A DNA stretch of 17,012 nt from an uncultured Christensenella sp. (GCA_949294585.1 CASFHZ010000047.1:1-17012); one strand, 5' to 3'; positions 45 to 17,012 are shown, counted from the first letter of the stretch. Notes: a model not told the origin generated them from the sequence alone. Program-made: numbers and translations.

Positions 45-3000
45 CTATTTAATTTTCATTCTCTTTCTTAGAAGAATAAATAGAATTGTTAGTCCAACAA
101 CTACAACTGATACAACAACAATTACAATAATTGAAACTGTGTTTAGTGGTTCATTTTTTATAACTCTGTATGAGTATAACAATTTTCCACTTTCTGAATA
201 TAGTTGAATATAATATGTGTTTGCATTTTCTAATGAGATTTGATAACTTGGGTTAATTGTCCCTTGTTCAAGTAGGTCACTGCTTATGTGCAAATCACTG
301 TAACCCGTTATTTTTAATACGCAATCACCAACATCTTCAATTAAATCACTTGTGTTAAATGAAACAATGATAGGTGAGGTTGTTGCTTTATTTTCTGCTA
401 TTGAAACAGATATTGGAGCAGTTGTGTTGTTTATCCAGAAACTGAATGTAAATTCTTGATTAAATTCATTCCCTGTATTAATTGTAACTGTGTATCTTCC
501 AGCACCTGTTAATGCATCGTATATTGATATTAAGAAATTCTTTAAATATGGTTTTAGTGAAGGTGAACCATCACTGTTTTGAACTGTTTTATATGTTAAA
601 TTACCCATATTTTCATTTGTCAATTGACTTGTTATGTCTTCATCGTTTTTGATTATTTTTGTTACATAATAATCAGCATATTCAGAAAACTCAAAAGCCC
701 ATCTTGATTCATTAGGTCTTATAATTAAGAAATAGGTTGGTTCTTCATTTATTTTTGTTACATTTCCATCAACTGTTACAGAAGCACTAAACCAAACTTT
801 GTATAGTCCTGTTTCTGTAAACAAGTAACTTCTGTTGTCACTGTCAATTGAAGGGGTGTAAGCAACACCATTTCTAAGAGCAGAAAGTTTTGGCTGAGCA
901 TTAGAATCATAGTATTTTGATGTTGAACTTGGAATATTAATTCTAACCTCACTGTCATACACTGCATTGTTTATTGGAGATTCCCCATTAACTGTGAATA
1001 TAACACTTCTTAGATATCTAATTGTGTAGGTACTATTTGATGAATCAAACATATGAACATTGCCAGCCAAATCACTAAATGTTAAATAGTATGTTCCAGA
1101 TGTTGTTAGAGTTATTATTGTTAAGTCATTGCTTATTTCTGTTTTTGGAGTGTATATGGTTTGATTATCACCAAAGTAAATTGTTACATTAACTTTGTTT
1201 TCTGGAATACCATAATAAGACTTCCAAGCAATGCGTTTATATGAAGAAGTGTTTTCCTCAATGCTAACAACAAATGATGACATTGTGCCACTTAGTGCTG
1301 TTCGTGTACCTTCGTTTGTGTAGTGTGAATAATTGGACAATATATTGTTTGTGTATGGAACAACAGTAATTGCAATTGTCCTTGTAAAGTAAGTGTTTGA
1401 ACCCACATCGTTTCCAACATTTGTTAGGTAATAGATATATGTTGTGTAACCATTAACAACAACAGGTGAAGGAACTGGTTCTTTTATGCCTTGTTCGGTG
1501 TTGTATAAAATTTCGAACTCTGTTGTGTTTAAAATATAGTGTGTTTGTATTGAATTTGTTAAATTGCCTTCGGTGTAGGTGAAAGAACTACCTGTTGCTT
1601 CTGCATAATATGTTTCACCATTAACTTTGTAAACAACTTTATAGAAATCTTCATCGTTGTCAGATATTGTAAAGTCTAGGTATGTGTCATATTGACTATC
1701 TGTGAACAAATTTGTGTATTTTATTATTAATGTATATGTTGCTGGGTTAGAAACAACTTTTCCAGAAGATATTTGTTCAATAGTGCAATCTTCATATTGA
1801 AGGAATACAGAGCAATTAAATCTTCCAACATCTTGTCTGAATGTTATTTTTATTTCATTGCCATACATTGTGCCTTTGTCGAACAAACCATTTTGGTTGT
1901 CGTTTTCTATTCCATAAAGTGTAATGTTTGGAATAATGTTGTAGGTTACAAAATTGATTGTTCTGTATGGTAAGCCCGAACTTATGTTTTCAATTGCTTC
2001 ATAAATATCAAGTTTAAAGAATATTTCTCCACCAATAATTCCTTCTGCCATATCTTGCTCTGCTTCGTACATAACAATTGTATAAACAACAGAATCGCCT
2101 GTTGGAATTAAAAGTTTTCCATAACCAGAAGCATTAAATGCATTAATTCCTGATTGTTTTGACAAATCAAATAGTTGAGAAGTGTATGATGTTGTTACTG
2201 TTAAAATAACATTATCTTTTGCACTGTTGTATTTAAACCTTATTTCTTTTGTTGAGTAATAATATTGATTTCCGTTTTCATATGTTTCAATAATGTCAAC
2301 ACTGCTGTACATTTCATTATCTATTTTTTCTGAGCCATAAATGTTTGTTATTGGATATGTGTCCGAGAAGTTATCCGTTACGATGTATTTATAAAATCTG
2401 TTTGGTGTAGGGGAGTTGACAATTATTTTTAGGTAGGTGCCTCCCATATAGTTTACATAACTTGAAGAAATTAAACTTGTGTTAACCAAATTTTGATTTG
2501 GTGTTTTAAAATATGTGTCCGAATTGTTTGAATATATTATTTCTTCTGTGTATGAGTTATCTCCATTTTTTATAAATTGAGTGATTTTTACATCAACTGC
2601 ATAAATGAGTGCATCGGATTCTGAACTTGAACTTGGGATTTTAATTAAAATACCTTCTTGATTTGAATATGTTGATGTTGAACTTGTGTGAATAACAGAA
2701 AGTGAAGTATTTAGAACAGATGCAGAAAGTGTTATTGTGTTATAGAATGGAACAAGTCCAATTACTATATTTTGCTTTTGACTATTTGCTAAAAGTGTTG
2801 CAAATTCTGTTAAATCAACTGCACTTTTTGTTGGGTTTGTTGGGTCATAAGTTGTAAGGTTATAATATTTGCTATTTGAATATGGCGTTTTTAAATATGA
2901 AGTGCCATTTACTGTTATTCTATTCCAATCAAATCCCATCATATCAACTTTTGTTAGTTGCATCGAACTCTTTGCAAATATGTCAATATTAGAATTTAAT

Positions 3001-6000
3001 TGATTATAGAAAATGTAATTTTGTTCATTGTTGTTTAGGTATTGAATAGGTGACAGGTTTGTGTCGGCAAGGGCATTTACATTTGTTAGGTATATTGTGT
3101 AAATGGTTATGTTGCCAGCCAAATCTTTTTCAACAATTTCAATATATTTGTTGTAACTATTTTGGTTGCTTAACAGTTCTGTTAATTTCATTTCATCTAA
3201 TGTGTCAAAATTATTAGTTGAATTTTCCACTGCACTTGGTGATGTTTCTTGTGTGTAGATATCATTGTATTTGGTGTTTACAATATTTCCATTAACTGTT
3301 GTTTCAAAAAATCTGTAAAGAATTGTGTAAGCATCTCCGTTTAAACTTGATGTTAAATCAATCAAATCTCTAATGTTGCTTGCATCAACGGAATAAGCAT
3401 AGTATTTATAAAGTCCAGAAGCAACAGAAGTGTTGTATTTTTGTTGTACATTTCTTAAAAGATTTTCATTTATTCCCGTTAAAGAAACCAATGTGTTTAT
3501 ATTTTTTGTTGGAGCAACTGTGTCAACAACAATTGTTCTTGTTGTTTTAAATTTTCCTGCATTATAATCTGATTCTTTTCCCTCAAATTGCATTGTTATT
3601 GAAATAACTGAATCATTATTGTATGCACCAATATCTGTTAAACTTAAATCAACATAATTATATCTATCATTTGTTTGAATAGAATCGGGATTTATTGTTT
3701 TTGATTCGCCACCATTAACAGAATAGGTTATGGCTGATTTATTGATTATTGACATAAACTCGTTTGAAGAATCTGTCCAAGCAAGTCTTATTGTTTCTTG
3801 ATTTGTGTAATAGTTGTTATTTGCGTATTTTAACTCTTCATTGTTTGTTGGGTTTAAAACTTCAAAAGATGGTTCTTCCTCTGTTATTCTAAACATAAAA
3901 CTAAATGAGTTTGCACCATATGGCAAATAGCCTTGTTCAATTGTAACTTTGTAATAACCAATTTCGGTGAATGTTATTCCCGATTTTTCTGGTTCATCAT
4001 AGAATTTTAGGTAACCGTTAGAACCAACAGAGCTATAATAGATTTTTGAAGGTTGGTCTATGTTTGAAAGTTCAAAACTATATCTAATTTCTGCATTTAA
4101 TGCATATGATTGAATAACACTGTTGCTAACATCTGATGGGTTATATGAGTTAATACTGTTTTCTGTGTTAAATGTTCCACCATCTGTTAATGAATATCCA
4201 TATTTAACAACTGGAATGTAAACGAAAACAGGAAGTTTGTTTGTTTCAAGAATTACTGTGTTTTCTGCTGAGTTGTTGCTTGCAATGTATATGTCCTCAA
4301 AAAACATTTTGTTGTCTTCTTCAAGAACTTGAATCTTAATTGATTCTCCAACATAACTATATGTGCTTGAACTTTCATCAACAACAACAGGTGAGGTTAT
4401 TATTCCGTTTCTGTCAACTATAAATGTTAATGTTCTTATCATATAGTCCAAACTTCCACTAACTTTGTTTTGCGTTCCTGTCATATTGCAGTATGTTCTT
4501 GTTATTGTATATTTTCCTGCTTTTGTTTGATAGGAGTTTGTTTTTGGATTGTACTCTTTGTTTATTTCCCAAATATACATACTATTTTCTTGTGTTAGTG
4601 ATTTGTTTTCATTTGGATTGCTTCTTGAATAAATTGTATATTCTTCGCTAGATTCAACAAATTGATATGTGTATGCAGAACTTGTATCATTTGTTATGTT
4701 TTTGCTTGCAAATTCGCTAAACTTATAAGTTATTGATTCAACTTCAATTATTCCTTCTTCTGGAACAGGATTAAACATTAATTTAAGAATTTCATTGCTG
4801 TCTTTTAATGTGTTAATTGTTGTTGGAATATAGAATTTATCTTTTTTAGTGTAATTTGTTTCAAGGTCAATTGATGCTTCTGGATTATATGCATCTTGAC
4901 TTAAATAGGTTTGTTGATTGTTTTTTGTGTAAATTAATTCGGTTAGTGATGCATCAAAAGATATTTTTAAACTATGTGTTCCTGAATAATTTTTTAGATA
5001 GTTATTAACTGATATTTCATCTTGACCTAATATTGTTTTTGTGTTTACTGAATCTCTTATGTAGAAATTGTATTCATTTTCTTGCTTGTCGTTAATAACA
5101 TAAGAATAATTGTTTTCTTCTGTTCCTTGAATAAATTTACTAACACCGTTTATTGAAAGCAAGACATTTGTGTTTATCTCTGATATAGTAAAGCAGGTGT
5201 TAACTGTGTTTATTGACATTGTTGTGAAGTATTTACTAAAAATGTCCGTTGTGTCAAAAACATTTTTTAACCATTCATCTGCAATATTGAAATTTCCACC
5301 TGCATATGATAGATTATTGAATTTTATAACTTTATATCTACCCCAAGAAACAGTTACATCAGATGATAATATATTAAGTTCACTTGGTTCAACATATTCT
5401 CCATTAACTTCTTGTAATATTTTTGCACTTGTTGTGTCTATTATAAACGAAAAGTATTGTTCATTGCCAGCACTATCTTTTATTCTAAACACATACATTC
5501 CTGCCTCTGTTAAAACATTTGTTGATGGAATATAGTTAAAATCTTTTGAGTTTTGATAGGTTACACTTGTTAGTGTAGTGTTGTTATAATCAAAATAGTA
5601 TTCAACAGGAACAGCATCATAACTGTAATATTGTTTTAACACTGTTGAAGTAAAGTTTGTTGATGTGTCCATAACAAGTGGAATGAATTTGTATTCTGCA
5701 ACAATTTCACTGCCACTTGCTTTGTTGTTCCAAGAAACAGCAACTGCTTGGTTTGTCCAAAAATCTATTTCGTTGTTTCTTGTGTAGTAGTTAGAGTTTT
5801 CAAGTTTTGATACAGCAAATATTTGTATGTTCTCTATATTTATATTATCAATTGTGAATGTTGAAGAGTAACTTCTTGAAAGGTTTTTGCCAAAGTACAT
5901 TGTAACAATATATCTTCCATTTTGTGTTGCAGTAAATTCTTCGTTTGAATTTATTGTTTGAACTTCAACATAATTTCCTGAATAATTGTTTTGCAAATAA

Positions 6001-7562
6001 ACAACCAATTTTGTTTTTGCATTAAAGGTAGATGTAGATGGCTCATCTTTTTTTATAATAACACTTTGATTTGTGTAAGCACCATCAAGAAGAACAGTGT
6101 TATCTTGTGTTTTTATAGACATTTGAGCAGTTTCTTTTGTCAATTCAAAAACAAACCATTGACTAAACAAATGCTCTTCTTCATCATCGCCAATTAATGA
6201 AGTTGGAACAATATCTGTGCTTCCTGTTAGTGATGAGTAGAATTTATAAACAACTTTAACTATGTAAATTCCAGAATCAGTTATTGGTCTGTTGTCATAA
6301 GATTGTTTTGCTGGGAGATTGTCAACAGTGTATTCATTGTTTTCAAGTTTAACTGGGTCAAGTTGCCAATATCCACTTTGGGTGTCAACAACAGTACTAT
6401 TTTCAGAATTAAATATTTCAACATTATATCTAAATTGAACAGGTGCTTGATTTGTTTGTTGTATGCTTAAAGATTTATCACTTATTTTTGCCAAAATATT
6501 GGTTAAATTTGTTTCTTCTGTGTTGTTTAGTGATGTGTGATAACCATTAGTAAGAAAACTTATGTCTGTGTATTCATCATCAATAACTCCGTTTGTGTAA
6601 GTTTTAAATTCTTTTAAATCAGATGTTTCTGAATCTGAATAATACAGTTGATATCCAAAAATTTCCAACATATCAGTTCTTTTGCTGATGTTTGTGCTTG
6701 ATGGGTTAAGGTTATCAACATTATTTCCATAGGTGTAAATGAAATTGTATTTTATTGTGTAAGTGCCAAGGTCATTAAAAATTATTGAAACAAGGTTGTT
6801 GTCTGGATTTTCAACAATCGACACCAAGTTGTTGTCGGTGTTAAGGTTTGTTCCATCAAACCATATATTTTGAGTTTTTGTAACTTTTTGGAATGTTTTT
6901 GTAATTTCAACAGTTATGTTCTTTTTGTTTATTGTTAGGGTAGGTAATAAATTATTTGAGTTGCTATTTTGATAGTTATATTGAAAAACACGGTCGTATA
7001 GTATTGATGAGTTTGAAGGTGAAAAGGCATTGTCGAACTGATATTGAACATAAGTGCCGTTGTAGTAATTTGTTTCCATCAAAACATAATAGGTGTAGTC
7101 AAAAGATTTTGTTGTTTGACTTCCGTTTTCTGTAACAGTGTAATCAAAATGTAGTTCATATTTTCCACAAGGATTTGCACCATTGTCAAAAGTTGATTCA
7201 ATAAGAAGTGAAATTCCGTTATATGTAATTTTTATTCCATTTTGCTCAAGCACTTCATTTGTGTAAGAAGAGCCATTAAATGAAAAATAATATGAAATAT
7301 GCACAATTGGATTTTCACCACTTATGTTTGATTGTGCGTGAAAATCTGCCTTAACAGTTTGTGAATTTGTTACATATGCAACTTCACCATTGCTGATTGA
7401 GGCAATGGCAGACTGTCCCGAATATTGAGTAACAGTAAAATACTCACATTCTGTTTCTGCAAAAACTTCATTTTGCTTTTCAGAAAAAGAACACACGCCA
7501 CAAATGGCAAGTGATAAAATAGCAAAAATAAATAATTTTTTAAATAAACTAAATTTTTTCAT
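45..7562 (-). CDS. Giant surface protein of about 2505 aa, rich in Asn, Thr, Ser and Tyr. It has an N-terminal signal peptide and a C-terminal transmembrane anchor with a KR-rich tail. Putative adhesin or cell-surface protein.
   Basis: The minus-strand ORF is uninterrupted. The maximal ORF starts at 7598, but the ATG at 7562 gives a canonical signal peptide (MKKFSLFKKLFIFAILSLAICGVCS, with a VFA/E cleavage-like site) and is preceded by a GGGGTG Shine-Dalgarno-like stretch. The C-terminus is VSIIVIVVVSVVVVGLTILFILLRKRMKIK, hydrophobic followed by positive residues. There is no LPXTG motif and no obvious internal tandem repeats. The composition is typical of beta-rich surface proteins. Confidence 0.9.
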   Translation of the reverse strand: MKKFSLFKKLFIFAILSLAICGVCSFSEKQNEVFAETECEYFTVTQYSGQSAIASISNGEVAYVTNSQTVKADFHAQSNISGENPIVHISYYFSFNGSSYTNEVLEQNGIKITYNGISLLIESTFDNGANPCGKYELHFDYTVTENGSQTTKSFDYTYYVLMETNYYNGTYVQYQFDNAFSPSNSSILYDRVFQYNYQNSNSNNLLPTLTINKKNITVEITKTFQKVTKTQNIWFDGTNLNTDNNLVSIVENPDNNLVSIIFNDLGTYTIKYNFIYTYGNNVDNLNPSSTNISKRTDMLEIFGYQLYYSDSETSDLKEFKTYTNGVIDDEYTDISFLTNGYHTSLNNTEETNLTNILAKISDKSLSIQQTNQAPVQFRYNVEIFNSENSTVVDTQSGYWQLDPVKLENNEYTVDNLPAKQSYDNRPITDSGIYIVKVVYKFYSSLTGSTDIVPTSLIGDDEEEHLFSQWFVFELTKETAQMSIKTQDNTVLLDGAYTNQSVIIKKDEPSTSTFNAKTKLVVYLQNNYSGNYVEVQTINSNEEFTATQNGRYIVTMYFGKNLSRSYSSTFTIDNINIENIQIFAVSKLENSNYYTRNNEIDFWTNQAVAVSWNNKASGSEIVAEYKFIPLVMDTSTNFTSTVLKQYYSYDAVPVEYYFDYNNTTLTSVTYQNSKDFNYIPSTNVLTEAGMYVFRIKDSAGNEQYFSFIIDTTSAKILQEVNGEYVEPSELNILSSDVTVSWGRYKVIKFNNLSYAGGNFNIADEWLKNVFDTTDIFSKYFTTMSINTVNTCFTISEINTNVLLSINGVSKFIQGTEENNYSYVINDKQENEYNFYIRDSVNTKTILGQDEISVNNYLKNYSGTHSLKISFDASLTELIYTKNNQQTYLSQDAYNPEASIDLETNYTKKDKFYIPTTINTLKDSNEILKLMFNPVPEEGIIEVESITYKFSEFASKNITNDTSSAYTYQFVESSEEYTIYSRSNPNENKSLTQENSMYIWEINKEYNPKTNSYQTKAGKYTITRTYCNMTGTQNKVSGSLDYMIRTLTFIVDRNGIITSPVVVDESSSTYSYVGESIKIQVLEEDNKMFFEDIYIASNNSAENTVILETNKLPVFVYIPVVKYGYSLTDGGTFNTENSINSYNPSDVSNSVIQSYALNAEIRYSFELSNIDQPSKIYYSSVGSNGYLKFYDEPEKSGITFTEIGYYKVTIEQGYLPYGANSFSFMFRITEEEPSFEVLNPTNNEELKYANNNYYTNQETIRLAWTDSSNEFMSIINKSAITYSVNGGESKTINPDSIQTNDRYNYVDLSLTDIGAYNNDSVISITMQFEGKESDYNAGKFKTTRTIVVDTVAPTKNINTLVSLTGINENLLRNVQQKYNTSVASGLYKYYAYSVDASNIRDLIDLTSSLNGDAYTILYRFFETTVNGNIVNTKYNDIYTQETSPSAVENSTNNFDTLDEMKLTELLSNQNSYNKYIEIVEKDLAGNITIYTIYLTNVNALADTNLSPIQYLNNNEQNYIFYNQLNSNIDIFAKSSMQLTKVDMMGFDWNRITVNGTSYLKTPYSNSKYYNLTTYDPTNPTKSAVDLTEFATLLANSQKQNIVIGLVPFYNTITLSASVLNTSLSVIHTSSTSTYSNQEGILIKIPSSSSESDALIYAVDVKITQFIKNGDNSYTEEIIYSNNSDTYFKTPNQNLVNTSLISSSYVNYMGGTYLKIIVNSPTPNRFYKYIVTDNFSDTYPITNIYGSEKIDNEMYSSVDIIETYENGNQYYYSTKEIRFKYNSAKDNVILTVTTSYTSQLFDLSKQSGINAFNASGYGKLLIPTGDSVVYTIVMYEAEQDMAEGIIGGEIFFKLDIYEAIENISSGLPYRTINFVTYNIIPNITLYGIENDNQNGLFDKGTMYGNEIKITFRQDVGRFNCSVFLQYEDCTIEQISSGKVVSNPATYTLIIKYTNLFTDSQYDTYLDFTISDNDEDFYKVVYKVNGETYYAEATGSSFTYTEGNLTNSIQTHYILNTTEFEILYNTEQGIKEPVPSPVVVNGYTTYIYYLTNVGNDVGSNTYFTRTIAITVVPYTNNILSNYSHYTNEGTRTALSGTMSSFVVSIEENTSSYKRIAWKSYYGIPENKVNVTIYFGDNQTIYTPKTEISNDLTIITLTTSGTYYLTFSDLAGNVHMFDSSNSTYTIRYLRSVIFTVNGESPINNAVYDSEVRINIPSSTSKYYDSNAQPKLSALRNGVAYTPSIDSDNRSYLFTETGLYKVWFSASVTVDGNVTKINEEPTYFLIIRPNESRWAFEFSEYADYYVTKIIKNDEDITSQLTNENMGNLTYKTVQNSDGSPSLKPYLKNFLISIYDALTGAGRYTVTINTGNEFNQEFTFSFWINNTTAPISVSIAENKATTSPIIVSFNTSDLIEDVGDCVLKITGYSDLHISSDLLEQGTINPSYQISLENANTYYIQLYSESGKLLYSYRVIKNEPLNTVSIIVIVVVSVVVVGLTILFILLRKRMKIK

Positions 7563-7722
7563 AAAACACCCCATAATAATCATTAAAAATATTAGCATAT
7601 TTTTTGTGTTTTTACAAATATATTGTGTATATTTATTTAATAATTATTTTTATATATAACATAAATAATAAAAAATTAATAATATTAGTTATAATAAATA
7701 AAAAAACTATTATTATTGCAAC

Positions 7723-7786
7723 AAAAAAAAGAATATATCAAAGGTGAGATTAACCTCAAAAGTGATATATTCTTTTCATTTTTTTT
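7723..7786 (-). terminator. Rho-independent terminator between the T4CP gene and the giant gene. The hairpin is flanked by A8 and T8 runs, so it could act in both directions.
   Basis: The sequence is AAAAGAATATATCA (7727-7740), a 22-nt loop, then TGATATATTCTTTT (7763-7776), forming a perfect 14-bp AT-rich stem. It is preceded by AAAAAAAA (7723-7730) and followed by TTTTTTTT (7779-7786). It lies 5 bp downstream of the T4CP stop codon (7791-7793) on the minus strand. Confidence 0.5.
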
Positions 7787-7790
7787 ATTA

Positions 7791-9758
7791 TTAAAAATCA
7801 AAATCATCAAAAATATTTTTCTTGAATATTTTGGCATTTCTTTTCTTAATATCATAAAATATTTTTCTTTCATCTAAATGCTTTGATGGAGCATATTCTT
7901 CAGATGCTTTTCTTTGGTCCAAAACAGGATTTTTGAAGTATTGTGTCATTTTTGTCTTAATTGGAGGTCTGCCATATATTTTTACAATATTAACATCAAA
8001 TGGCAATTGTCCCAACTCATATGGTTCAATTAATGGCCTTGTAACAATTTGTGTTCCAACAGTTTTGGATTTATCTTTGTCATTTTTCTCAGAACGATTT
8101 TCTGAAACATTCTGAGTTTTTAATGTAACTTCGCCACACATTTTAGAAAATTCTTCTCTTGTTTTTTGGTCCTCTGTTCCAATAAATATTTGAATATTAC
8201 AGTTTCCTTTAATTGTGTCTGCAACTTCTTTTGTGTATTTATTGTCCAATTGACTATATGATTGAATTGCCAATTCAAAGAAAATTCTTCTTGAACGAGC
8301 AACTGTTATTATTGTGTCCATCTTTTCAATTTTTGGCAAGTTTGCAAACTCATCAAGCAAGAAGTAAACAGGTCGGTCCAATTGCAAATTTGGTTTTTGT
8401 GATGCTGTGTCAATTAATGTTTTATACATTTGAGAAATACACATTGTTGCAATGCTGTGTCTGCTTTCTTTTTCATCTGGAACTTTTATAAACAACACTG
8501 TTGGCTTTTCTGTGAAGTCTTCAAACGAAACATCTGTTGCACTTGTGCAATAACAAATACCCATATCTTGAAAAACTGCAATTTTTGGTTGCAAAACACC
8601 AAGGTAAGAACGGGTTGTGTTTGGTGCGTTGTTAACAACAGTGCTTGTTAGGGCAGGTACTTTTGACAACACATCTCTTCCACTTGTGTATTGTTGCAAG
8701 GTTTTCATCATATTGTCACCATCGGTGTCACGATGTGTTGCAATTTTTACAAGGTTATAAAAATTAAACTTTTCTCTTGTCATTCCAAGTTCTGGGTCCA
8801 AACTATCTTCAAGCATAGCAAGCATAAGTCCAAACAAAAAGTCCTGAGCACCTCTTTCCCAGCCTTGGTCGGTTTTACTTTCAACTGTTACAATTGTGCT
8901 TGCAATTTCACGAAGTTCGTTTTCAGCCTCATTGATTAAAGATTGTTTTTTTGCTTCAAGGTCTTGCATTAATCTATCTTTTGTTGGGTATGCAATTTTG
9001 TTGAAGCCATACCACACATTTCCATATGTGTCAGATATAATTCTGTAACCACCAACATCTTTTGGGTTTGAATTTTTGTAAACTTTAACTTCTTCTTCAA
9101 GATGGTGTGCTCTTGTGTACATAACAAATGCGTGGTCCATTGGATTCCATCTTGTTGAAGAATATGGATTACGAAGGTCAATTGTGATTATTCTGTAACC
9201 CTCTTCACGAAGTTGAATAGAGTGGTTATTATACAGTTCGCCTTTTGGGTCGGTTATAACCATACAAGGTTTTTCTGCCGAGTGAGCATATACTCTTATT
9301 GCTGGGTCCAAAACAAAAGTTGTTTTACCAGAACCTGTTGTTCCAATAATAAGAGTGTGAATAGGGTTATACATATTGATGTACATTTTGCCATTTTTGT
9401 ATAAACTTCTAATCATAACTCCAGTTTTTTTAAGTTTTGGAAGTTGGTTAAATGTTGTTGGCATATATGCCTGGTCAGTTAATAACTCTTGTTCAGAAAC
9501 AAAACGAGCTTCATAGTGCTGAGCCATTTTTTCACCAGTTTGAGTTTTTCCCGTAAAACCTTCAGTGTCCGTTGTTGTGCTTTTTGATGATGAAACCATA
9601 TACAAAATAACAGCAAGAATACCAAGTCCAAAAATAACGAGAGCTGTTGTGCTACTTAGTGCTTGCACAAAATCAATCTCTTCAATTAACATTGATGCAA
9701 CAACACCAACGATGTATGCAATTAAAGCAAAAATTATGGTGTTTCTAAATTTTTTCAT
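7791..9758 (-). CDS. Type IV secretion coupling protein (T4CP), TraG/TraD/VirD4 family, about 655 aa.
   Basis: There are two N-terminal TM helices (IIFALIAYIVGVVASMLI and ALVIFGLGILAVILYMV). Then comes Walker A (IIGTTGSGKTT), the family-typical ITDPKGE motif, and Walker B (VYFLLDEFANLPKI). The ATG at 9758 is preceded by GGAGG with a 5-nt spacer. The longer ORF back to 9785 would begin at a GTG with no RBS. These are established VirD4/TraG signatures. Confidence 0.9.
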   Translation of the reverse strand: MKKFRNTIIFALIAYIVGVVASMLIEEIDFVQALSSTTALVIFGLGILAVILYMVSSSKSTTTDTEGFTGKTQTGEKMAQHYEARFVSEQELLTDQAYMPTTFNQLPKLKKTGVMIRSLYKNGKMYINMYNPIHTLIIGTTGSGKTTFVLDPAIRVYAHSAEKPCMVITDPKGELYNNHSIQLREEGYRIITIDLRNPYSSTRWNPMDHAFVMYTRAHHLEEEVKVYKNSNPKDVGGYRIISDTYGNVWYGFNKIAYPTKDRLMQDLEAKKQSLINEAENELREIASTIVTVESKTDQGWERGAQDFLFGLMLAMLEDSLDPELGMTREKFNFYNLVKIATHRDTDGDNMMKTLQQYTSGRDVLSKVPALTSTVVNNAPNTTRSYLGVLQPKIAVFQDMGICYCTSATDVSFEDFTEKPTVLFIKVPDEKESRHSIATMCISQMYKTLIDTASQKPNLQLDRPVYFLLDEFANLPKIEKMDTIITVARSRRIFFELAIQSYSQLDNKYTKEVADTIKGNCNIQIFIGTEDQKTREEFSKMCGEVTLKTQNVSENRSEKNDKDKSKTVGTQIVTRPLIEPYELGQLPFDVNIVKIYGRPPIKTKMTQYFKNPVLDQRKASEEYAPSKHLDERKIFYDIKKRNAKIFKKNIFDDFDF

Positions 9759-10023
9759 TAATTCCTCCAAAATTAAATTTAACACACAGTGCTATTTTTT
9801 CTTTTACTTTTTTATTGTACTTAATATAAAAATATAAGTCAATTAAAAAATACTTTTTCGTTGCTAGTAAATTATTAATAAGAAACTAAGTAATTGTATT
9901 TTTTTCTATGTTAATATTATAATCACAGTGCAATAAATTTATTTTTTATTTAAAATGTTTTTTTACAATTTAATATTTTTTAAATAAAAATAAAAAAAAT
10001 TAAAAAAAATATTAAAAAATGTT

Positions 10024-10052: not shown

Positions 10053-10127
10053 AAAGCGTAAATCAGTTTGCAATATGAATAATGTTTGTTTTTTTGCAAA
10101 TAAATAAAATAAATTTTGGAGGAAATT

Positions 10128-10502
10128 ATGAACGTATTTTTGACAAAAGTTGCTACATATTTAATGGGATTTAGTGGCATTCTTGCAGACGGCGACTGGA
10201 AAGACAGATTGGAAGGAACTCAATGGGCTTGGGTTGTTGACATTGTCAGCGCAATTGATACACTATTGTATCCATTACTAATTGTAGTTGGTGCCGCAGG
10301 AACAATTTATGCCGTTGTTATTGGTGTAAATATGGCAAGAGCTGATTCAACAGAAAAAAGAGAAGAAGCAAAGAAGAGATTAATTAATGTAATTGTTGGT
10401 CTTGCAATAATTATAGCTTTAATATTGTTCTTCAAATTATTCATATCTGTTATTGTTCCAGCATTCGTTCCAGAATCAACAGAAACAACACCAGTTGCTT
10501 AA
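10128..10502 (+). CDS. Small (124 aa) two-TM membrane protein. Putative T4SS component, VirB3/TcpE-like or VirB2-like.
   Basis: The ATG at 10128 is preceded by GGAGG (10118-10122) with a 5-nt spacer. The track's 10116 start is a TTG. Two hydrophobic helices (LLYPLLIVVGAAGTIYAVVIGV and LINVIVGLAIIIALILFFKLFISVIVPAFV) are separated by a short charged loop. It sits immediately upstream of the VirB6-like gene. The functional assignment rests on context only. Confidence 0.75.
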   Translation: MNVFLTKVATYLMGFSGILADGDWKDRLEGTQWAWVVDIVSAIDTLLYPLLIVVGAAGTIYAVVIGVNMARADSTEKREEAKKRLINVIVGLAIIIALILFFKLFISVIVPAFVPESTETTPVA

Positions 10503-10521: not shown

Positions 10522-10550
10522 AAAGCTCTGCCTTTGTGCAGAGTTTTTTA
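10522..10550 (+). terminator. Rho-independent terminator after the 124-aa gene.
   Basis: AAAGCTCTGC, a CTTTGT loop, then GCAGAGTTTTTTATT. The GC-containing 6-8 bp stem is followed by a T-run, 20 bp after the stop codon. Confidence 0.7.
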
Positions 10551-10699: not shown

Positions 10700-12943
10700 A
10701 TGGATTTTGGTGTATGGGTTATGGATTTGATTTACATTATACCCAAGTTATTATATTTTTTGTGTTCTATGTGCACAATGGTTATTGATTTGTTGCAATT
10801 GCTTTTCAGAAAATTTGCTGGACTTGATACATATTACATAAATGGAAGCGAAGTTTCTGGTGAAATAATAGATGGTGCAACTCAACAAGGTTCTGGTGAT
10901 ATGATTCTTCAAATTATAAACAAAACCTTTTTGGATACAGAAAATTCTGTTATTGCAGTTGCATTTTGGAGTATAATTTTGCTGGCTGCAATTTTGCTTG
11001 TTATAACAACAGTGGCAGCAATAATCAAAAACGAATATTCACCTGATAAGGAAAAGAAAAATTCAAAAACTGGAATTGTTATAAACTTCTTTAAGGCAAT
11101 ATTTTCATTTGCAATAATTCCAATTGCTTGCTATTTTGGAGTTTGGTTTGGCAATATTGTTCTGTTTGCAGTTGATTCTGCAATTTCACCAACTGTTACA
11201 GCAATTTCCGAAACAGAAGAAATAAATGATAAAATTGTCTTTGATGAATCCACGGGTTCACCTGCATATTATTGCTTTATGGGTGAGGCCGTTCCTGCAA
11301 AATTCACACCACTAAGTGGCTACATATCAAAAGTTTGTTTATACAATGGAAGCAGAGTTAGAGTTGATGATACTTTCTATGAAACTGTAATACTAGCCGA
11401 TGATGTGAATAACACAACAACAAACTTTGGAATGTTCAATAGTGATGCACTTCAAACAAAAGAAGATGTTGCCAGTGCAATTGATAATGTATTTATGATA
11501 AATGCAAGGTTAAAAACTCCACAAAAACTAAATCACATTAATCAAGACCCGGGATATATTTTTATCCAAAATGGCACGGTGGAATACTTTGACAAAACAG
11601 ATGTTGGTTTGGTGTCGTACTACTATAATCTTTGGTACTATAACTTCCCAATTGCAATTGTGTTTATCATTGTAATTGGAAAACTTATGGCCGAGTTTGT
11701 GTTTGGACTTATGACTCGTTTGATAACAGTGCTTGCACTTTTGTTAATTGGACCAATCACAATGTCATTTATGCCACTAGATGGTGGAAGTGCATTAAGC
11801 GATTGGAAAAAAGAATTTATTGTTAGAGTAATGTCATCATACATTTTAATACTTGCAATGAATATATTTTATCTAATACTTCCTGTTTTGGACACAATAA
11901 CTTTCTTTGGGACAAGTTCAGGACTAGCTTGGGTGGATTACATTATAAAAACATTGTTTGTAATTGCAGGTTTAATGTCGGTTAAAACAATAATCAAATT
12001 GTTTAATGGAATAATAAAGGTTGACAAAGCAAAGAGTTCAATTCTTGACGATGGTGGTGCAGCAATGTCGGGCACTTTGGGAATGGCAAAGAAAACAACT
12101 GGTATGGCTATTTCTGGTGCAAGGGCAATTGGAGGCTTAGGTCTTGCAGGAGTTGGATTGGCAGGAATGGCAATTGGTGGAGCAACAGGTGGAATAGGCA
12201 AAGGAGTTAACTACTATCAACGAAGAAAAGAACAACAAGCACTTAACTCAACAACTGCACACGGAAATGCATCAGATAGTCAACTAAAAGATAATGTAGT
12301 GTTGTTTGCTCAGGACAATATTAAAAATCAAGTACAACAAGATTATGATGCTGAACTTAACAAGAGAAGTATGGAAGCATATAAGAGAGCATATGGTAAC
12401 AATCCAAAAATTTCTTTTGAAGATTATAAAAATGCAAATGTTGAAGGTTCATATAGACAGGCAGAAGATTATTACTATAACGAAATGACACCAGAGGAGA
12501 GGCAAAAAATCAGCATAGGTGACTACACAAAACAAGTTTATGAAAACAGTCAATTTGCAAATACAATGTCATATAAGAAATGGAAGGCAATTGGTTATCT
12601 TGATGTAATGCACGATAAAGATTCTTATCAAAATGTTGTGAAAGGTCTTTCAGATTATAAAGAAAATCGAGAATCTCAAATTCAGTCAGACATATACAAT
12701 GCAATGCAAACTGGTGTTGCAAACAATCAACTAGAAAGAGATGCAATTGATGACTACAACAACCTAGTTCAACAAAGATCAAAAGCAAGAACAGATTCTT
12801 CAGAGCACGCAAAAAAACTGCACGAACTTGAAGAAAAGGACAAAAACAGAAGATGGAGAATGGCAAGAATGGGTTCAAAAGCAGTACAAAGTGGTATGGG
12901 TAATGTGTTTAGATCTGTAAATGGTATAGCTGGTAAGAAGTAA
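10700..12943 (+). CDS. Polytopic membrane protein (747 aa) with VirB6/TrbL-like, TcpH-like topology. It has a C-terminal glycine-rich segment and a charged, helical tail.
   Basis: There are about 7 predicted TM segments, with a roughly 150-aa hydrophilic loop after the third. After the last TM comes GMAISGARAIGGLGLAGVGLAGMAIGGATGGIGKG, then a roughly 250-aa domain rich in K, E, Q and D. The gene is adjacent to the T4CP gene. There is no diagnostic motif, so the family call is inferred from topology and context. Confidence 0.8.
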   Translation: MDFGVWVMDLIYIIPKLLYFLCSMCTMVIDLLQLLFRKFAGLDTYYINGSEVSGEIIDGATQQGSGDMILQIINKTFLDTENSVIAVAFWSIILLAAILLVITTVAAIIKNEYSPDKEKKNSKTGIVINFFKAIFSFAIIPIACYFGVWFGNIVLFAVDSAISPTVTAISETEEINDKIVFDESTGSPAYYCFMGEAVPAKFTPLSGYISKVCLYNGSRVRVDDTFYETVILADDVNNTTTNFGMFNSDALQTKEDVASAIDNVFMINARLKTPQKLNHINQDPGYIFIQNGTVEYFDKTDVGLVSYYYNLWYYNFPIAIVFIIVIGKLMAEFVFGLMTRLITVLALLLIGPITMSFMPLDGGSALSDWKKEFIVRVMSSYILILAMNIFYLILPVLDTITFFGTSSGLAWVDYIIKTLFVIAGLMSVKTIIKLFNGIIKVDKAKSSILDDGGAAMSGTLGMAKKTTGMAISGARAIGGLGLAGVGLAGMAIGGATGGIGKGVNYYQRRKEQQALNSTTAHGNASDSQLKDNVVLFAQDNIKNQVQQDYDAELNKRSMEAYKRAYGNNPKISFEDYKNANVEGSYRQAEDYYYNEMTPEERQKISIGDYTKQVYENSQFANTMSYKKWKAIGYLDVMHDKDSYQNVVKGLSDYKENRESQIQSDIYNAMQTGVANNQLERDAIDDYNNLVQQRSKARTDSSEHAKKLHELEEKDKNRRWRMARMGSKAVQSGMGNVFRSVNGIAGKK

Positions 12944-12961: not shown

Positions 12962-12991
12962 AAATCATCACATAGTTGTGATGATTTTTTT
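12962..12991. terminator. Bidirectional terminator between the convergent VirB6-like and PRC-barrel genes.
   Basis: AAATCATCACA, a TAGT loop, then TGTGATGATTTTTTTT, forming a perfect 11-bp stem. It is A-rich on the left and T-rich on the right, and it overlaps the stop of the minus-strand gene at 12990-12992. Confidence 0.7.
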
Positions 12992-13682
12992 AATACACAC
13001 TATAAAAAAGTTCATTCAATTTGTCGTGTTGTTTTGCAATCATTACTTGCTTTGGAGAAATTATTTGATTTTGTTTTAAAATAAGTTCGTTATTTTTTCC
13101 AATGATGTCTTTTGATAGTTTTTTGCCTATTAAAATGTCACTATTAACAGTTAATTTTGATGGCATTAACTTTTGCTCGGGTTCTTCCATTTTCATAACA
13201 CTAACTGTTAAATTCTTTAACAAATCTTCATTATTTTTTGTGTATCTTGGCTTAAAATTGCAAAATTTTACATTTTCGCCAACAACAATGTTGTCCAATA
13301 TTGATATGATGTTTTTTGGAGCAATTTTTTCATTTTTATTGGTGATAAAGGAAGTTATGCAATAATTTTCATCAAATTCCAAATCAGATAAAATGCCATA
13401 ATTTTTGCCATCAACACCAACAACAATTTTGCCAATTGGTGACAATGGTTTGTCCAACATAAATTCATTTGAAATTTTTGTTGTGTTTTTTATTACAACA
13501 AAATCTTTTATACTATATACATTTTGAATTTTTAAAAAATATTCGTTCTCATCTTGGTCAAAAAAATAAATTCCCAACACTTTGTCTTGTTTTTCATTAA
13601 AGGCAATTTCGTTAACAGTTCCCAAAAATTTAGTATTGTAAATGGAAAACACTTGTTTGCCAATTATTTCAGATAGTTTCAT
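12990..13682 (-). CDS. PRC-barrel domain protein (YlmC/YmxH-like) with two tandem PRC-barrel-like repeats plus a C-terminal extension. 230 aa.
   Basis: The N-terminus MKLSEIIGKQVFSIYNTKFLGTVNEIAFNEKQDKVLGIYF fits the YlmC/YmxH pattern (L-E-x-G-K-x-V, then G-x-[LV]-x-D-[LI]). A second copy is PIGKIVVGVDGKNYGILSDLEFDENYCITS...ILDNIVVGENV. GGAGG sits 4 nt upstream of the ATG at 13682. Confidence 0.8.
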   Translation of the reverse strand: MKLSEIIGKQVFSIYNTKFLGTVNEIAFNEKQDKVLGIYFFDQDENEYFLKIQNVYSIKDFVVIKNTTKISNEFMLDKPLSPIGKIVVGVDGKNYGILSDLEFDENYCITSFITNKNEKIAPKNIISILDNIVVGENVKFCNFKPRYTKNNEDLLKNLTVSVMKMEEPEQKLMPSKLTVNSDILIGKKLSKDIIGKNNELILKQNQIISPKQVMIAKQHDKLNELFYSVY

Positions 13683-13730
13683 TTTTCCTCCTAAAATATC
13701 ATATTATTTGACTATAAATATTATTCGTGT

Positions 13731-13760
13731 TTGCACTATTTTTTCATTTGTGTTATACTT
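13731..13760 (+). promoter_or_regulatory. Candidate promoter with an extended -10 (TGtTATACT). It sits about 10 nt upstream of the SPFH gene's ATG, which implies a leaderless or very short-leader mRNA.
   Basis: TTGCAC (13731-13736), an 18-nt spacer, then TGTTATACT (-10 at 13755-13760). No Shine-Dalgarno sequence lies between this and the ATG at 13771. Confidence 0.3.
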
Positions 13761-13770
13761 TAATAGTAAT

Positions 13771-14874
13771 ATGGGAATTTTTAGTAATTTAAAACAAATG
13801 TTTTCAAGTGATATAAAACCTGACACAACAAAAATGACAGGTCTTGTTTATCCTTATCCATTAAAACATAACTCCATAAAAATAAACTCAAAAGTATTTG
13901 TCCCAAAAGGTTATTCCTTTGTTATTGGCTACAATGGCAGAGCACTTGACACTTTTGGTGAAGGTGAGTACTTTCTAAGTCCTGCAACTTTGCCAGAATG
14001 TTGCAAAAGATTAAAAATACACAAGTCAACAAAAAAGGGAACAGTAAAAAAGCAGTTCAAAGCAAATGCCTATTTTGTTCAACAAAATGAGTATGTTTTT
14101 AACTTTAAAACACAAGAAAAGGCCGAACTTGGAAGAAAAGCAAGTGGAATTTTTAAAGTTGGATTAACTGCCAATGTTAAAATAAAAATTGTTGACAGCA
14201 AAAAATTCTTAGCATCTATGCTATTTGAGTTTGCATACTTAAAACAAAATGAGGCAGAAAAAATACTCGGTTATTTAACATCGGACTATGTTGTTAATAT
14301 TTTAAGTAAATATAACTTTGCACTTTCGGAGTTTATAAATTCAAATGATGTTATTGTTGATAATATTTCTTGTGAACTTGCACAAAAATATAACAAACTT
14401 GGAATAATGCTATTAGATTTCTATAATGTTAGATATTTGCTACCCAAAAAATATATGAGTGAATACGAAGAAAACTTGCAAAAAATTGAAGAAAATGCTA
14501 GGAGTAAAGAAGTTGATAACAACGAAAATGAAGCTAATCAAAACAATGCAACAAATGATGTTATAGAAGACTATAAACCATATGGAAACATAGAAATTCA
14601 AGATTTAAAAAATGCACAAACTAAAGAAGAAACACAAAAAATTGACACAGAACAATGTGAAAATGACAAAAATGATGTAGAAATTGAAGAAAATCAAAAT
14701 CAACAACAACAAAATGAAGAAAAATCACAAGAATTTATAGACTTAAATTTGGATAATTTGTATAATACAAAAGCAAATAATGGCAAGCAATGCAAATATT
14801 GTGGATTAGTAAATTCAAACGATGCAGAAGTTTGCGAATTATGTGGAAATAAATTAGGAGGCGAAAATGAATAA
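13771..14874 (+). CDS. SPFH/Band-7 family protein (Band_7_1-like, the family often annotated as 'virion core protein-like') with a C-terminal zinc ribbon. 367 aa.
   Basis: It starts MGIFSNLK and continues LVYPYP...GEGEYFLSPATLP, which resembles the Band_7_1 pattern (MGxF...VYRFP...GPGRYTL). It ends CKYCGLVNSNDAEVCELCG, a CxxC-x11-CxxC motif. An acidic N/E/Q-rich linker precedes the zinc ribbon. The track ORF extends back to 13642, but that would overlap the divergent gene and its RBS. Confidence 0.75.
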   Translation: MGIFSNLKQMFSSDIKPDTTKMTGLVYPYPLKHNSIKINSKVFVPKGYSFVIGYNGRALDTFGEGEYFLSPATLPECCKRLKIHKSTKKGTVKKQFKANAYFVQQNEYVFNFKTQEKAELGRKASGIFKVGLTANVKIKIVDSKKFLASMLFEFAYLKQNEAEKILGYLTSDYVVNILSKYNFALSEFINSNDVIVDNISCELAQKYNKLGIMLLDFYNVRYLLPKKYMSEYEENLQKIEENARSKEVDNNENEANQNNATNDVIEDYKPYGNIEIQDLKNAQTKEETQKIDTEQCENDKNDVEIEENQNQQQQNEEKSQEFIDLNLDNLYNTKANNGKQCKYCGLVNSNDAEVCELCGNKLGGENE

Positions 14875-15332: not shown

Positions 15333-15923
15333 ATGGAAGAATATATAACAAACAATAAAAAAGAATATTTGGATTTGGTTAAAAATAACATAAAAAGGGA
15401 AGGAATTGATAATTTAATAGATTGGTTGCAAAAAACTGATTTCTTTACTGCTCCTGCTTCAACAAAATACCATTCTTGCTATGAAGGAGGTTTGTGCAGA
15501 CACAGTTTAAATGTTTATAATAGATTTGTAAAAAACCTAAAAAACGAGTTTGGTGATGAATGGGAAAAACATTGTTCACTGGAAAGTGCAACAATAATTG
15601 CATTATTTCACGATTTGTGCAAAGTAGATTTTTATACTGTTGAAATGAGAAATGTTAAAGAAAATGGTATTTGGGTTCAAAAACCATATTATGCTGTTAA
15701 TGATAAACTTCCATATGGACACGGAGAAAAATCTGTTTATATAACAAGTAGTTTTATAAAACTAACTAGAGATGAAGCAATGAGTATAAATTGGCATATG
15801 GGTGAATACGATGCAAGAGCAAAGGGTGGAGTTAGTTTGTCGGACATTTACTATAAATACCCAGTTGCTTTTCTGTTCCACCTATCAGATAATATGGCTA
15901 CATATCTTGATGAAACAATGTAA
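15333..15923 (+). CDS. HD-domain phosphohydrolase. 196 aa.
   Basis: Metal-binding motifs H..H (YHSCYEGGLCRHSLNV), HD (IIALFHDLCKV) and a downstream D (WHMGEYD) are present. The RBS is strong. Confidence 0.85.
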   Translation: MEEYITNNKKEYLDLVKNNIKREGIDNLIDWLQKTDFFTAPASTKYHSCYEGGLCRHSLNVYNRFVKNLKNEFGDEWEKHCSLESATIIALFHDLCKVDFYTVEMRNVKENGIWVQKPYYAVNDKLPYGHGEKSVYITSSFIKLTRDEAMSINWHMGEYDARAKGGVSLSDIYYKYPVAFLFHLSDNMATYLDETM

Positions 15924-16042: not shown

Positions 16043-16104
16043 TGAAATGCATTATATAAAAAAGAATGCAGATATTAAAATAAGTAATAAAAATGGGAGG
16101 AGAG

Positions 16105-17012
16105 ATGAAAAGCAAATTAAAGATAGTTGCAATGCTTAGTGCAATGTGTTTTGTTGTTTTTATGCTAACAGTTGGCGTGCTCAGTTTAAAAAATGTTGAT
16201 GTAAATGTTGGTGGAAGCATAAACTATTCAGCAAACGGAGTTATGGCAACAATTTCAAATGGTGTACTTGAAAACAATGCAAGTAATGTAACAGGCAAAA
16301 TGCAAGGGTTTACGGTTGAGTTAAACCAAGATGAAAGTGCAATTCAAAGTGCATTAAACAGTTGGTCAGGTTTAGAGTTGCAATTTAACGAAAACGGTGA
16401 TGATGTAACAATAACATTCAGTGTAACAAACAATCACACAACCGACTATTTGCAAGTTAACATAGAAGTTGATGCAGGCACACCAACAAACGCAACAGTT
16501 GGTGTTAATAGCAACAATAATACCCTATCACCAAGCACAGTTAGTGATGGAAGTAATGCATATACACATGTAATAACATTTCATATAGAGAATACGAACC
16601 TTAATGCAAGCATAAGCAATTTTGCCATAAGTGTTAACTTAACAAAGGGTGTAATACCATTAGAGTCAGATTATTCATACTTAACATTTACTAAAGATGA
16701 ACAATCTCTAACAGCAAGTGTTACAGGTTTTGATAATTCAGTAAGTGAAGTAAATATACCATCAAAAATAAAAGATGATAAAGATGATAATGGAAATGTT
16801 TATACAGTAACAGGTATAGGAAGTCGTGCATTCGAGGATTGCACAAATTTAGCAAGTGTAACAATCCCAGACAGTGTAACAAGTATAAGATATAATGCAT
16901 TCGATGGTTGCAGTGGCTTAACGAGTGTAATAATAGGTAATGGTGTAACAGATATAGAAAGTTCTGCATTCTCTGGTTGCACTAGTTTAACAAGTGTAAC
17001 AATCCCAGACAG
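16105..17012 (+). CDS. Secreted or surface protein with BspA-type leucine-rich repeats. It is 5'-partial, open at the window end, so at least 302 aa.
   Basis: I translated this myself; it is absent from the ORF track because no stop codon falls within the window. It begins MKSKLKIVAMLSAMCFVVFMLTVGVLS, a signal peptide or N-terminal anchor. Then comes a roughly 230-aa N/T/S-rich region. It ends ...GIGSRAFEDCTNLASVTIPDSVTSIRYNAFDGCSGLTSVIIGNGVTDIESSAFSGCTSLTSVTIPD, which is classic BspA/LRR_5 repeats. GGGAGGAG lies 3-4 nt before the ATG. Confidence 0.85.
   Translation, partial: MKSKLKIVAMLSAMCFVVFMLTVGVLSLKNVDVNVGGSINYSANGVMATISNGVLENNASNVTGKMQGFTVELNQDESAIQSALNSWSGLELQFNENGDDVTITFSVTNNHTTDYLQVNIEVDAGTPTNATVGVNSNNNTLSPSTVSDGSNAYTHVITFHIENTNLNASISNFAISVNLTKGVIPLESDYSYLTFTKDEQSLTASVTGFDNSVSEVNIPSKIKDDKDDNGNVYTVTGIGSRAFEDCTNLASVTIPDSVTSIRYNAFDGCSGLTSVIIGNGVTDIESSAFSGCTSLTSVTIPD

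Follow-up and report, generated by a model that had tools for sequence, protein, structure and literature searches.

A giant surface protein with a predicted immunoglobulin-like fibre fold, encoded beside type IV secretion genes in uncultured Christensenellales: a candidate adhesin of family UBA1242

What is the role of a surface protein of 2505 amino acids (aa) whose gene lies directly downstream of a gene for a conjugation-type coupling protein? The question is raised by a 17,012-nucleotide (nt) stretch of DNA from an uncultured Christensenella sp. (GCA_949294585.1, CASFHZ010000047.1:1-17012), referred to here as the window, in which the giant gene (45..7562, minus strand) follows, on the same strand, the gene of a VirD4-type type IV coupling protein (T4CP; 7791..9758). 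A first-pass annotation made from the sequence alone had pointed out this arrangement, which our analysis bears out, and had put the protein forward as a candidate mating adhesin or element-encoded host-adhesion factor; a mating adhesin of a mobile element is not supported by our analysis. We instead describe the giant protein as a fibre of immunoglobulin (Ig)-like domains, encoded by a chromosomal core gene of the family UBA1242, that is likely an adhesin and may be coupled to a domesticated type IV secretion system (T4SS). Taken as a whole we favour this account by a modest degree, and its parts differ in strength. Those on structure and evolution are near certain; a function as adhesin or tether to a partner cell or surface, suggested by the modelled structure, is probable; cooperation of the fibre with the chromosomal T4SS is a tentative proposal that we place somewhat short of even chances.

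That the giant open reading frame (ORF) is a real gene, and one subject to strong purifying selection, is shown by its full-length homologues and by a low ratio of nonsynonymous to synonymous substitution rates (dN/dS). A word-indexed search returned full-length homologues at 46-87 % identity in 28 clusters, and in comparison with the 87 %-identical relative at locus L002 (loci are denoted here by L and homologous proteins by P) dN/dS is 0.061, with uniform values of 0.04-0.08 over all 2505 codons. Similar values were obtained against L002 for the T4CP gene (0.054) and for housekeeping neighbours (0.04). Translation almost certainly begins at ATG 7562 (MKKFSLF...), which with a stop codon at 45-47 yields 2505 aa. 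This start is preferred because a Shine-Dalgarno sequence (GGGGTG, 7567-7572) lies upstream of it, because it agrees with the starts of the homologues, most of which begin with MKK, and because the alternative ATG at 7598, which opens the first-ATG version of the ORF (45..7598, 2517 aa), falls within the -10 element of a conserved promoter. The spacer from the T4CP stop codon to the preferred start measures 228 nt; the first-pass annotation had the protein length right and made a minor slip in the distance, its 190 bp belonging to the spacer of 192 nt that ends at ATG 7598.

The termini of the protein define its topology. Hydropathy analysis gives clear hydrophobic segments at residues 3-29 and 2470-2502 of 2505, the first within a signal peptide region (7458..7562; MKKFSLFKKLFIFAILSLAICGVCSFSEKQNEVFA / ETE, the slash marking the putative cleavage site) and the second corresponding to a C-terminal transmembrane (TM) helix (69-137). 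Directly before this helix stands a K-N-E-P-L-N motif (141-158), and behind it a basic, cytoplasmic tail of about seven residues, RKRMKIK (48-68), all on the minus strand. One further segment, in the interior (1599-1617), is borderline, scoring 1.7 where the threshold is 1.6, and we read it as a beta-strand rather than a TM helix. The protein is rich in N, S, T and Y (10.7, 10.4, 10.3 and 8.2 %, respectively) and also in I. A regular-expression search found no LPXTG-type motif near the C-terminus and only three chance matches in the interior, and a comparison of the last 51 aa with NCBIfam at E<=10 returned only noise for the known C-terminal sorting signals (PEP-CTERM, Firmicu-CTERM, LPXTG type). 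Profile self-comparison with hhalign detected a single weak internal repeat (residues 482-528 against 1234-1284, probability 62 %), and no significant match was obtained in Pfam, NCBIfam (E<=0.01), PHROG or the PDB sequences, the only trace being a sub-threshold Clathrin match (21 bits against 29.6). These results uphold much of what had been proposed at the outset for the protein itself, namely a signal peptide, a C-terminal TM anchor with a positively charged tail in type I topology, an N/T/S/Y-rich composition, and the lack of an LPXTG motif, of obvious internal repeats and of a recognisable family. Lipoprotein anchoring was considered and rejected, as the LAIC/GVC sequence of the window protein is non-canonical and its Cys is not conserved in homologues (e.g. 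P0003, P0008, P0020). We note separately that the layout of K-x-(E/D)-P-L-N motif, TM helix and basic tail resembles a sortase/exosortase-type sorting signal, but none of the known C-terminal sorting models gives a match.

The extent of the family became apparent when a profile built on the conserved last 438 residues was compared, with no word index, with 1.84 billion representatives. The profile recovers at least 561 clusters at E<=1e-3 and, at the stricter E<=1e-30, 401; the matching segment is invariably the extreme C-terminus. From these, 148 representatives were retrieved, 121 of them full-length, with lengths of 2441-3169 aa (median 2709). The basic tail is present in all 121 full-length representatives and a signal-peptide-like N-terminus in 113 of them, and in most the K-x-(E/D)-P-L-N motif stands right before the TM helix; all 28 homologues from the word search likewise keep signal peptide, TM helix and basic tail. 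Conservation increases towards the membrane. In an 18-sequence alignment, mean identity rises from 33-40 % over the first 200 residues to 66 % over the last 400, the most variable part of the window protein being its membrane-distal N-terminal ~200 residues (6999..7598, minus strand). The last ~438 aa (48..1361, minus strand) form a membrane-proximal module of four predicted beta-sandwich domains, the K-N-E-P-L-N motif, the TM helix and the basic tail, and this is the region best conserved among distant homologues, at 30-35 % identity. Our literature search found no description of the family or of its gene cluster, and on these comparisons the giant proteins appear to be an undescribed, fast-diverging family of constant size (2.4-3.2 thousand residues).

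The first-pass annotation had proposed structure prediction as a check for Ig-like or adhesin folds, and folds of the Ig-like adhesin type were indeed returned. AlphaFold2, run on two parts of the protein with a 28-sequence alignment, gave models consisting almost wholly of beta-strand, with predicted local distance difference test (pLDDT) scores of 80.3 for residues 40-1239 and 83.4 for residues 1290-2489. Foldseek comparison of these models with the PDB retrieved exclusively multi-domain chains of Ig or fibronectin type III (FN3) domains, the best match (E 1.8e-15) being the neck of the GhpA grappling hook; others are axonemal and titin-like proteins, contactins, receptor phosphatases, alpha-2-macroglobulin MG domains and the S-layer proteins 7ptp and SbsB. 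Among the top PDB matches there was no enzymatic, lectin-like or PrgB-like domain. The giant protein is accordingly modelled as a tandem chain of roughly 20-25 divergent Ig/FN3-like beta-sandwich domains, an estimate from strand counts, which if extended could form a rod of the order of 100 nm. As modelled, it is a long tandem surface array of Ig/FN3-like domains, the feature by which fibrillar Ig-like adhesins are classed.

The spacer between the T4CP gene and the giant gene carries signals of its own. Directly 3' of the T4CP stop codon lies an intrinsic-terminator-like hairpin with a U-run (7717..7777, minus strand). The hairpin itself (7723-7776), which had been recorded at first reading as weak, proved to be real, with a folding free energy of -19.5 kcal/mol and a z-score of -4.3, none of 200 shuffled sequences folding as well, and in L006, L007, L010, L012, L014, L018, L028 and L030 this position is taken by hairpins of unrelated sequence with a T-run behind them. 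Between this element and the start codon is a promoter block of about 60 nt (7589..7650, minus strand) that is almost unchanged in 15 species, the rest of the spacer not being alignable. It comprises an AT-rich upstream element, a -35 hexamer TTGTAA (7612-7617), a 17-nt spacer, and an extended -10 element with TG at 7596-7597 and TAATAT at 7589-7594; across species the -35 reads TTGTAA or TTGTCA and the -10 retains the TG-n-TAATAT form. The core 20-mer occurs once per locus, at the promoter site only, and distant lineages carry analogous extended -10 promoters before the giant gene. Because a terminator follows the T4CP gene and the giant gene has its own conserved promoter, we predict that the giant gene is a separate, strongly expressed vegetative transcription unit driven by a sigma-A-type promoter. 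Co-transcription with the T4CP gene, a possibility that the first-pass annotation had proposed to check, is argued against by the same two elements.

Which genes accompany the giant gene, and how constantly? The 655-aa T4CP of the window (7791..9758, minus strand) matches PF02534 (E 1.7e-55), TraG-D_C (E 1.9e-35) and TrwB_AAD_bind, scores 285 bits against the NCBIfam 'VirD4-like, CD1115 family' (cut-off 250), and has two N-terminal TM helices with intact Walker A (GTTGSGKT) and Walker B (FLLDEF) motifs. Its ORF was called as 7791..9785; homologues of 655-658 aa fit a start at 9758. T4CPs are 83-86 % identical between species whose giant proteins are 50-58 % identical, and the nearest plasmid relatives of the window T4CP share 28-32 % identity with it. 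Divergent from the T4CP gene is that of a VirB2-like T4SS pilin with two TM helices (10116..10502, plus strand; PF18895, E 9e-10, 38.9 bits against a cut-off of 26.6), which also reaches 34.4 bits against the NCBIfam Mbov_0395 family, below the cut-off of 40. Downstream lies the gene of a VirB6-like polytopic membrane protein of 747 aa with at least six TM helices (10700..12943, plus strand), for which the NCBIfam matches are sub-cut-off as well (MMCAP2_0566, 84.7 bits against 90; Mbov_0396, 57.6 bits against 70). By these matches the pilin and VirB6-like proteins do resemble families of Mycoplasma integrative and conjugative elements (ICEs), a type of system that the first-pass annotation had cited for comparison. 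The VirB6-like protein is fast-evolving, with 57 % identity and a dN/dS of 0.25 against L002 compared with ~90 % and 0.04-0.10 for its neighbours, and is 31-36 % identical across the window clade; this divergence could reflect diversifying selection on exposed loops or a component that is being lost. As a side observation, a bidirectional terminator-like hairpin (10522-10547, both strands) separates the pilin and VirB6-like genes, and given this hairpin the pilin gene may be the more highly expressed of the two. Rfam searches of the intergenic regions gave only sub-threshold small RNA matches at this position (STnc370, isrJ), probably just the hairpin.

In 23 loci from several deep clades, a T4CP gene and a VirB2-like pilin gene accompany the giant gene, joined sometimes by a VirB6-like gene and in some clades by a VirB4 gene. 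Within the window clade every locus with enough flank shows the same arrangement of T4CP, giant, pilin and VirB6-like genes, and VirB4 is absent from the window and from within +/-10 kb of all window-clade loci. T4CP and pilin genes also flank the giant gene in L006, L007, L025, L027, L028, L029 and L030, with the distant lineages among these, L006, L007 and L030, adding a VirB4-type ATPase to the cluster, and at every T4CP-linked locus with enough flank the pilin gene adjoins the T4CP gene. L025, L027 and L029 carry only the pilin, T4CP and giant genes, with the VirB6-like gene missing from the locus, between housekeeping flanks (Nth-Obg-DegV, or Alr with methyltransferases). The trio stays together despite changed outer flanks (L005, L025, L027, L029), and in L025 the T4CP gene is inverted yet still adjoins the giant gene. 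The chromosomal surroundings extend this picture. Genes of the order ypeB-sleB-spoIIR-sipL-veg adjoin the giant gene in L002, L006, L007, L029 and L030, and BLAST with the L002 genes as reference puts them in L012 too. Between these lineages the giant proteins are only about 30 % identical. The divergence of their T4CPs (44 %) is in step with that of SleB (57-60 %), SpoIIR (47 %) and Veg (42-45 %). Because the chromosomal position is the same at deep divergence and the divergence runs parallel to that of housekeeping genes, the shared position points to vertical inheritance of a chromosomal cluster.

The giant proteins belong to uncultured Christensenellales of the family UBA1242. Among GTDB representatives, the genomes with the giant gene are uncultured Clostridia metagenome-assembled genomes and Christensenella sp. 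designated UBA1242, UBA5893 and UBA5489. For this family, in which the genus UBA5489 is placed, genomes of 0.76-0.92 Mb are reported (PMC12306168), of which the 7.5-kb giant gene makes up ~1 %. UBA1242 lacks amino-acid, nucleotide and lipid synthesis, ATP synthase and standard transporters, and unexpectedly retains sporulation genes; a partner-dependent lifestyle, as obligate symbionts, has been proposed (PMC12306168). The same study reports the family as common in animal and human guts and mentions only 'hypothetical membrane-bound proteins', the giant family not being described.

By its topology signals the giant protein is exported by Sec and held in the cytoplasmic membrane by its single C-terminal helix, with about seven basic residues inside and ~2450 residues projecting outward as a fibre of Ig/FN3-like domains. 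We propose a mechanism in which the variable membrane-distal tip would recognise a partner, while wall and membrane would house the conserved module at the other end. The fibre could thereby give a contact function to a relaxase-less T4SS remnant of monoderm type, as inferred for Patescibacteria. Direct contact with the T4CP ATPase is unlikely because the cytoplasmic tail has seven residues; any coupling to the T4SS would more plausibly run through membrane or extracellular parts, such as the VirB6-like protein or the pilin.

Several points weigh against this account. The tail is too short to reach the T4CP ATPase, and a terminator and a dedicated promoter part the giant gene from the T4CP gene. 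Chains of Ig domains also form S-layers and wall scaffolds, and 7ptp and SbsB are among the fold matches. Adhesion is a role suggested by the modelled fold and topology, and the window organism is placed in UBA1242 through the names of its homologues rather than by genome-level classification. Two further points concern the linkage itself. The largest clade of the family, the P0020-like clade, is the nearest clade for 45 of the 121 full-length representatives, and in it the giant gene adjoins genes for a nucleoside hydrolase and a family 2 glycosyltransferase (GT2) with tetratricopeptide repeats (TPR), with, on the other side in L041, two unknown genes and then rplA-rplK-nusG-secE-secA. In L034, L037, L040 and L041 of this clade, tblastn for genes of the T4CP, the pilin, the VirB6-like protein and VirB4 gave no match over the 1.4-5 kb before the giant gene and the up to 10 kb behind it that the contigs cover. 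Conversely, L031 (GCA_964320065.1, a 665-kb contig) and L033 (a Hadza human-gut contig of 198 kb) have an orthologous T4CP gene facing pilin(s), VirB6-like and VirB4 genes, in housekeeping surroundings and with no relaxase gene, and these T4SS clusters contain no giant-family gene. Because of these two sets of loci, giant gene and T4SS module are frequently but not obligatorily neighbours. The co-occurrence with VirD4 and VirB6 genes, which the first-pass annotation had proposed to check, accordingly holds for VirD4, pilin and VirB6-like genes at most loci examined, and fails in the P0020-like clade.

Two observations from these loci stand apart. The GT2 gene with TPR repeats is a conserved, oppositely oriented upstream neighbour in L034, L037, L040 and L041, and hints that the N/S/T-rich fibre may be glycosylated. 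The VirB4 of this T4SS is highly conserved, more than 100 protein clusters sharing 62-65 % identity, and a domesticated chromosomal T4SS may be widespread in these gut Clostridia. Behind the T4SS cluster of L033 come two genes, of 1769 and 1247 aa, for which no Pfam match is on record and whose N-termini show no obvious signal peptide; these, and proteins of ~1.6 thousand residues near VirB4 in L007 and L030, were considered as members of the giant family and rejected, hmmsearch giving no match.

Could the protein serve the cell envelope rather than contact? It might be an S-layer-like or wall-spanning, possibly glycosylated protein that protects or shapes minimal cells, its adjacency to the T4CP gene being an accident kept by small-genome synteny. 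We regard this as unlikely, although several observations speak for it: the P0020-like clade has a GT2/TPR glycosyltransferase in place of a T4SS neighbour, T4SS clusters exist without the giant gene, the gene has its own sigma-A-type promoter behind a terminator, purifying selection is even along its entire length, and the S-layer proteins 7ptp and SbsB are among the structural matches. Known S-layer anchoring is by SLH and CWB2 anchors, however, and a rod of ~2450 aa on a single C-terminal TM anchor differs from that; a variable tip on a conserved base fits a recognition fibre better than a lattice protein, and the T4CP-pilin-giant trio persists through changes of flank and inversion of the T4CP gene.

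The reading with which the locus was first annotated, a mating-pair-formation adhesin of an ICE or plasmid-derived conjugative element, like PrgB or CDS14 of Mycoplasma ICEs, is in our judgement very unlikely, and the mobility that it implies is largely refuted. In its favour, the adjacent T4CP belongs to a conjugative family (CD1115), Mycoplasma ICEs have proteins that the pilin and the VirB6-like protein resemble, VirB4 is encoded in the same cluster in some lineages, and monoderm T4SSs depend on surface adhesins for contact (PMC12102498). In about 25 loci examined, however, the flanks contain no relaxase, integrase, transposase, tRNA target or flanking repeats (Pfam-annotated flanks were checked for relaxase, integrase and replicon genes in L002, L003, L005, L006, L007, L029, L030, L031 and L033), and the neighbours of the giant and T4SS loci are always housekeeping or sporulation genes. 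An IstB_IS21 match in the flanks was considered as an insertion sequence and rejected, the gene being DnaI, beside a DnaB_2/DnaD-type gene. The giant protein has no match on 72,556 plasmids (tblastn) or in viral contigs, the T4CPs of plasmids are at most 28-32 % identical to that of the window, the same chromosomal position is kept over deep divergence in step with housekeeping genes, and the window clade lacks VirB4 at the locus. The protein also has neither LPXTG motif nor lipobox, and no similarity to PrgB.

Detailed comparison with the two named adhesins leads to the same view, as homology was found to neither. With PrgB/aggregation substance and related LPXTG adhesins (pCF10, ICE antigen I/II) the giant protein shares the character of a large Firmicute surface protein with Ig-like domains and adjacent T4SS genes, but it is TM-anchored instead of LPXTG-anchored, is about twice the size of PrgB, and has no sequence or fold match to PrgB among the top hits. 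Its gene, unlike those of PrgB systems, is chromosomal, lacks an associated relaxase gene, has its own promoter and is not always T4SS-linked. Mycoplasma ICEs similarly combine a surface protein with a minimal T4SS, and the window pilin and VirB6-like proteins give sub- to near-threshold matches to theirs (Mbov_0395/0396 = MMCAP2_0565/0566); the giant protein, however, gave no NCBIfam match (E<=0.01) that would relate it to CDS14 and has no conserved lipobox Cys, and its locus is without a DDE transposase or ICE borders. The giant adhesins SiiE (Salmonella), Ebh (Staphylococcus) and GhpA (Aureispira) have recognisable sequence repeats, whereas the giant protein has almost none and no sequence homology to them; SiiE, exported by a type I secretion system, and GhpA, by a type IX system, also differ from it in secretion and anchoring. 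The grouping they share is a structural class and not a homology family.

A sporulation-related fibre, on the spore or at the interface of mother cell and forespore, is highly improbable: the giant gene does adjoin spoIIR, sipL, sleB and ypeB at the six loci named above (L012 by BLAST), and UBA1242 keeps sporulation genes (PMC12306168), but its promoter is sigma-A-like (TTGnCA -35, extended TGnTAnAAT -10) and not sigma-E/K/F/G-like, the neighbouring sporulation genes lie on the opposite strand, L005, L027 and L041 have other neighbourhoods, and an ectodomain of ~2450 aa is too large for the intermembrane space.

For the preferred account of a partner-binding fibre beside a domesticated T4SS, the closest parallel is found in Patescibacteria, which have a chromosomal, relaxase-less T4SS derived from the MPF-FATA type of mating-pair formation system, with VirB2-like pilins, that is essential for epibiotic growth (e.g. 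Southlakia epibionticum; PMC12102498). Common to both are a reduced-genome, partner-dependent host, a chromosomal monoderm-type T4SS with PF18895 pilins and no relaxase, and an inferred non-conjugative co-option. The hosts here are instead spore-forming Clostridia; the T4CP is here conserved better than any other component and is constantly linked, whereas its patescibacterial counterpart usually lies far from virB4 and was not essential; and no adhesin was found in the patescibacterial clusters, whereas here a gene for a giant Ig-fibre is adjacent. A further step would be to see T4CP, pilin and giant fibre, with VirB6-like and VirB4 components retained in some lineages and lost in others, as one dedicated contact and translocation device by which ultra-small, spore-forming Clostridia with genomes under 1 Mb would dock on partners and import or exchange macromolecules, which we consider speculative and rather unlikely. 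On that view the Firmicutes would have evolved, independently, a counterpart to the patescibacterial epibiont T4SS, in the window clade possibly one that works without a locus-encoded VirB4.

The remainder of the window, beyond the VirB6-like gene, holds PRC-barrel, SPFH, DUF1858 and HD-hydrolase genes. The SPFH/Band-7 ORF (13642-14874, plus strand) overlaps the PRC-barrel gene (12990-13682, minus strand) by 41 nt as listed; its homologues have 341-383 aa, so that the true start is probably an internal methionine (MGIFSNL...), and the protein ends in a zinc-ribbon-like tail (Cys-x2-Cys ... Cys-x2-Cys). The 196-aa HD hydrolase (15333-15923, plus strand) has no Pfam match, matches the PHROG phage family 'metal-dependent phosphohydrolase' (E 2.5e-53) and is syntenic in the window clade only; it was considered as a MobH relaxase and rejected, with 15.5 bits against a cut-off of 200. 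An ORF running off the right end (16093-17012, plus strand) encodes a signal peptide and BspA-type leucine-rich repeats, another probable surface protein, and at 16807-17012 its DNA repeats a 69-nt unit three times in tandem (VTxIGxxAFxxCxxLxSVxIPDS). The corresponding place in the close relative L002 holds dnaI, which marks a synteny break, and in L005 a gene with LRR_5 repeats also follows the giant gene.

In summary, there are separate precedents for giant Ig-like adhesins, for adhesins associated with T4SSs and for domesticated T4SSs, and what is new here is their combination in a spore-forming, genome-reduced Firmicute, together with a TM-anchored, non-repetitive fibre of 2.5 thousand residues. 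The family adds more than 500 clusters of large proteins without a match in sequence libraries. A gene that takes up ~1 % of the genome, evolves under strong purifying selection and is read from a strong promoter of its own is likely central to the biology of UBA1242. The fibre offers a concrete candidate for a contact structure, and the adjacent relaxase-less T4SS genes a candidate transfer channel. The locus would also be a second, phylogenetically independent case in which machinery of the conjugation type has become a fixed part of the chromosome in a minimal bacterium that depends on a host.

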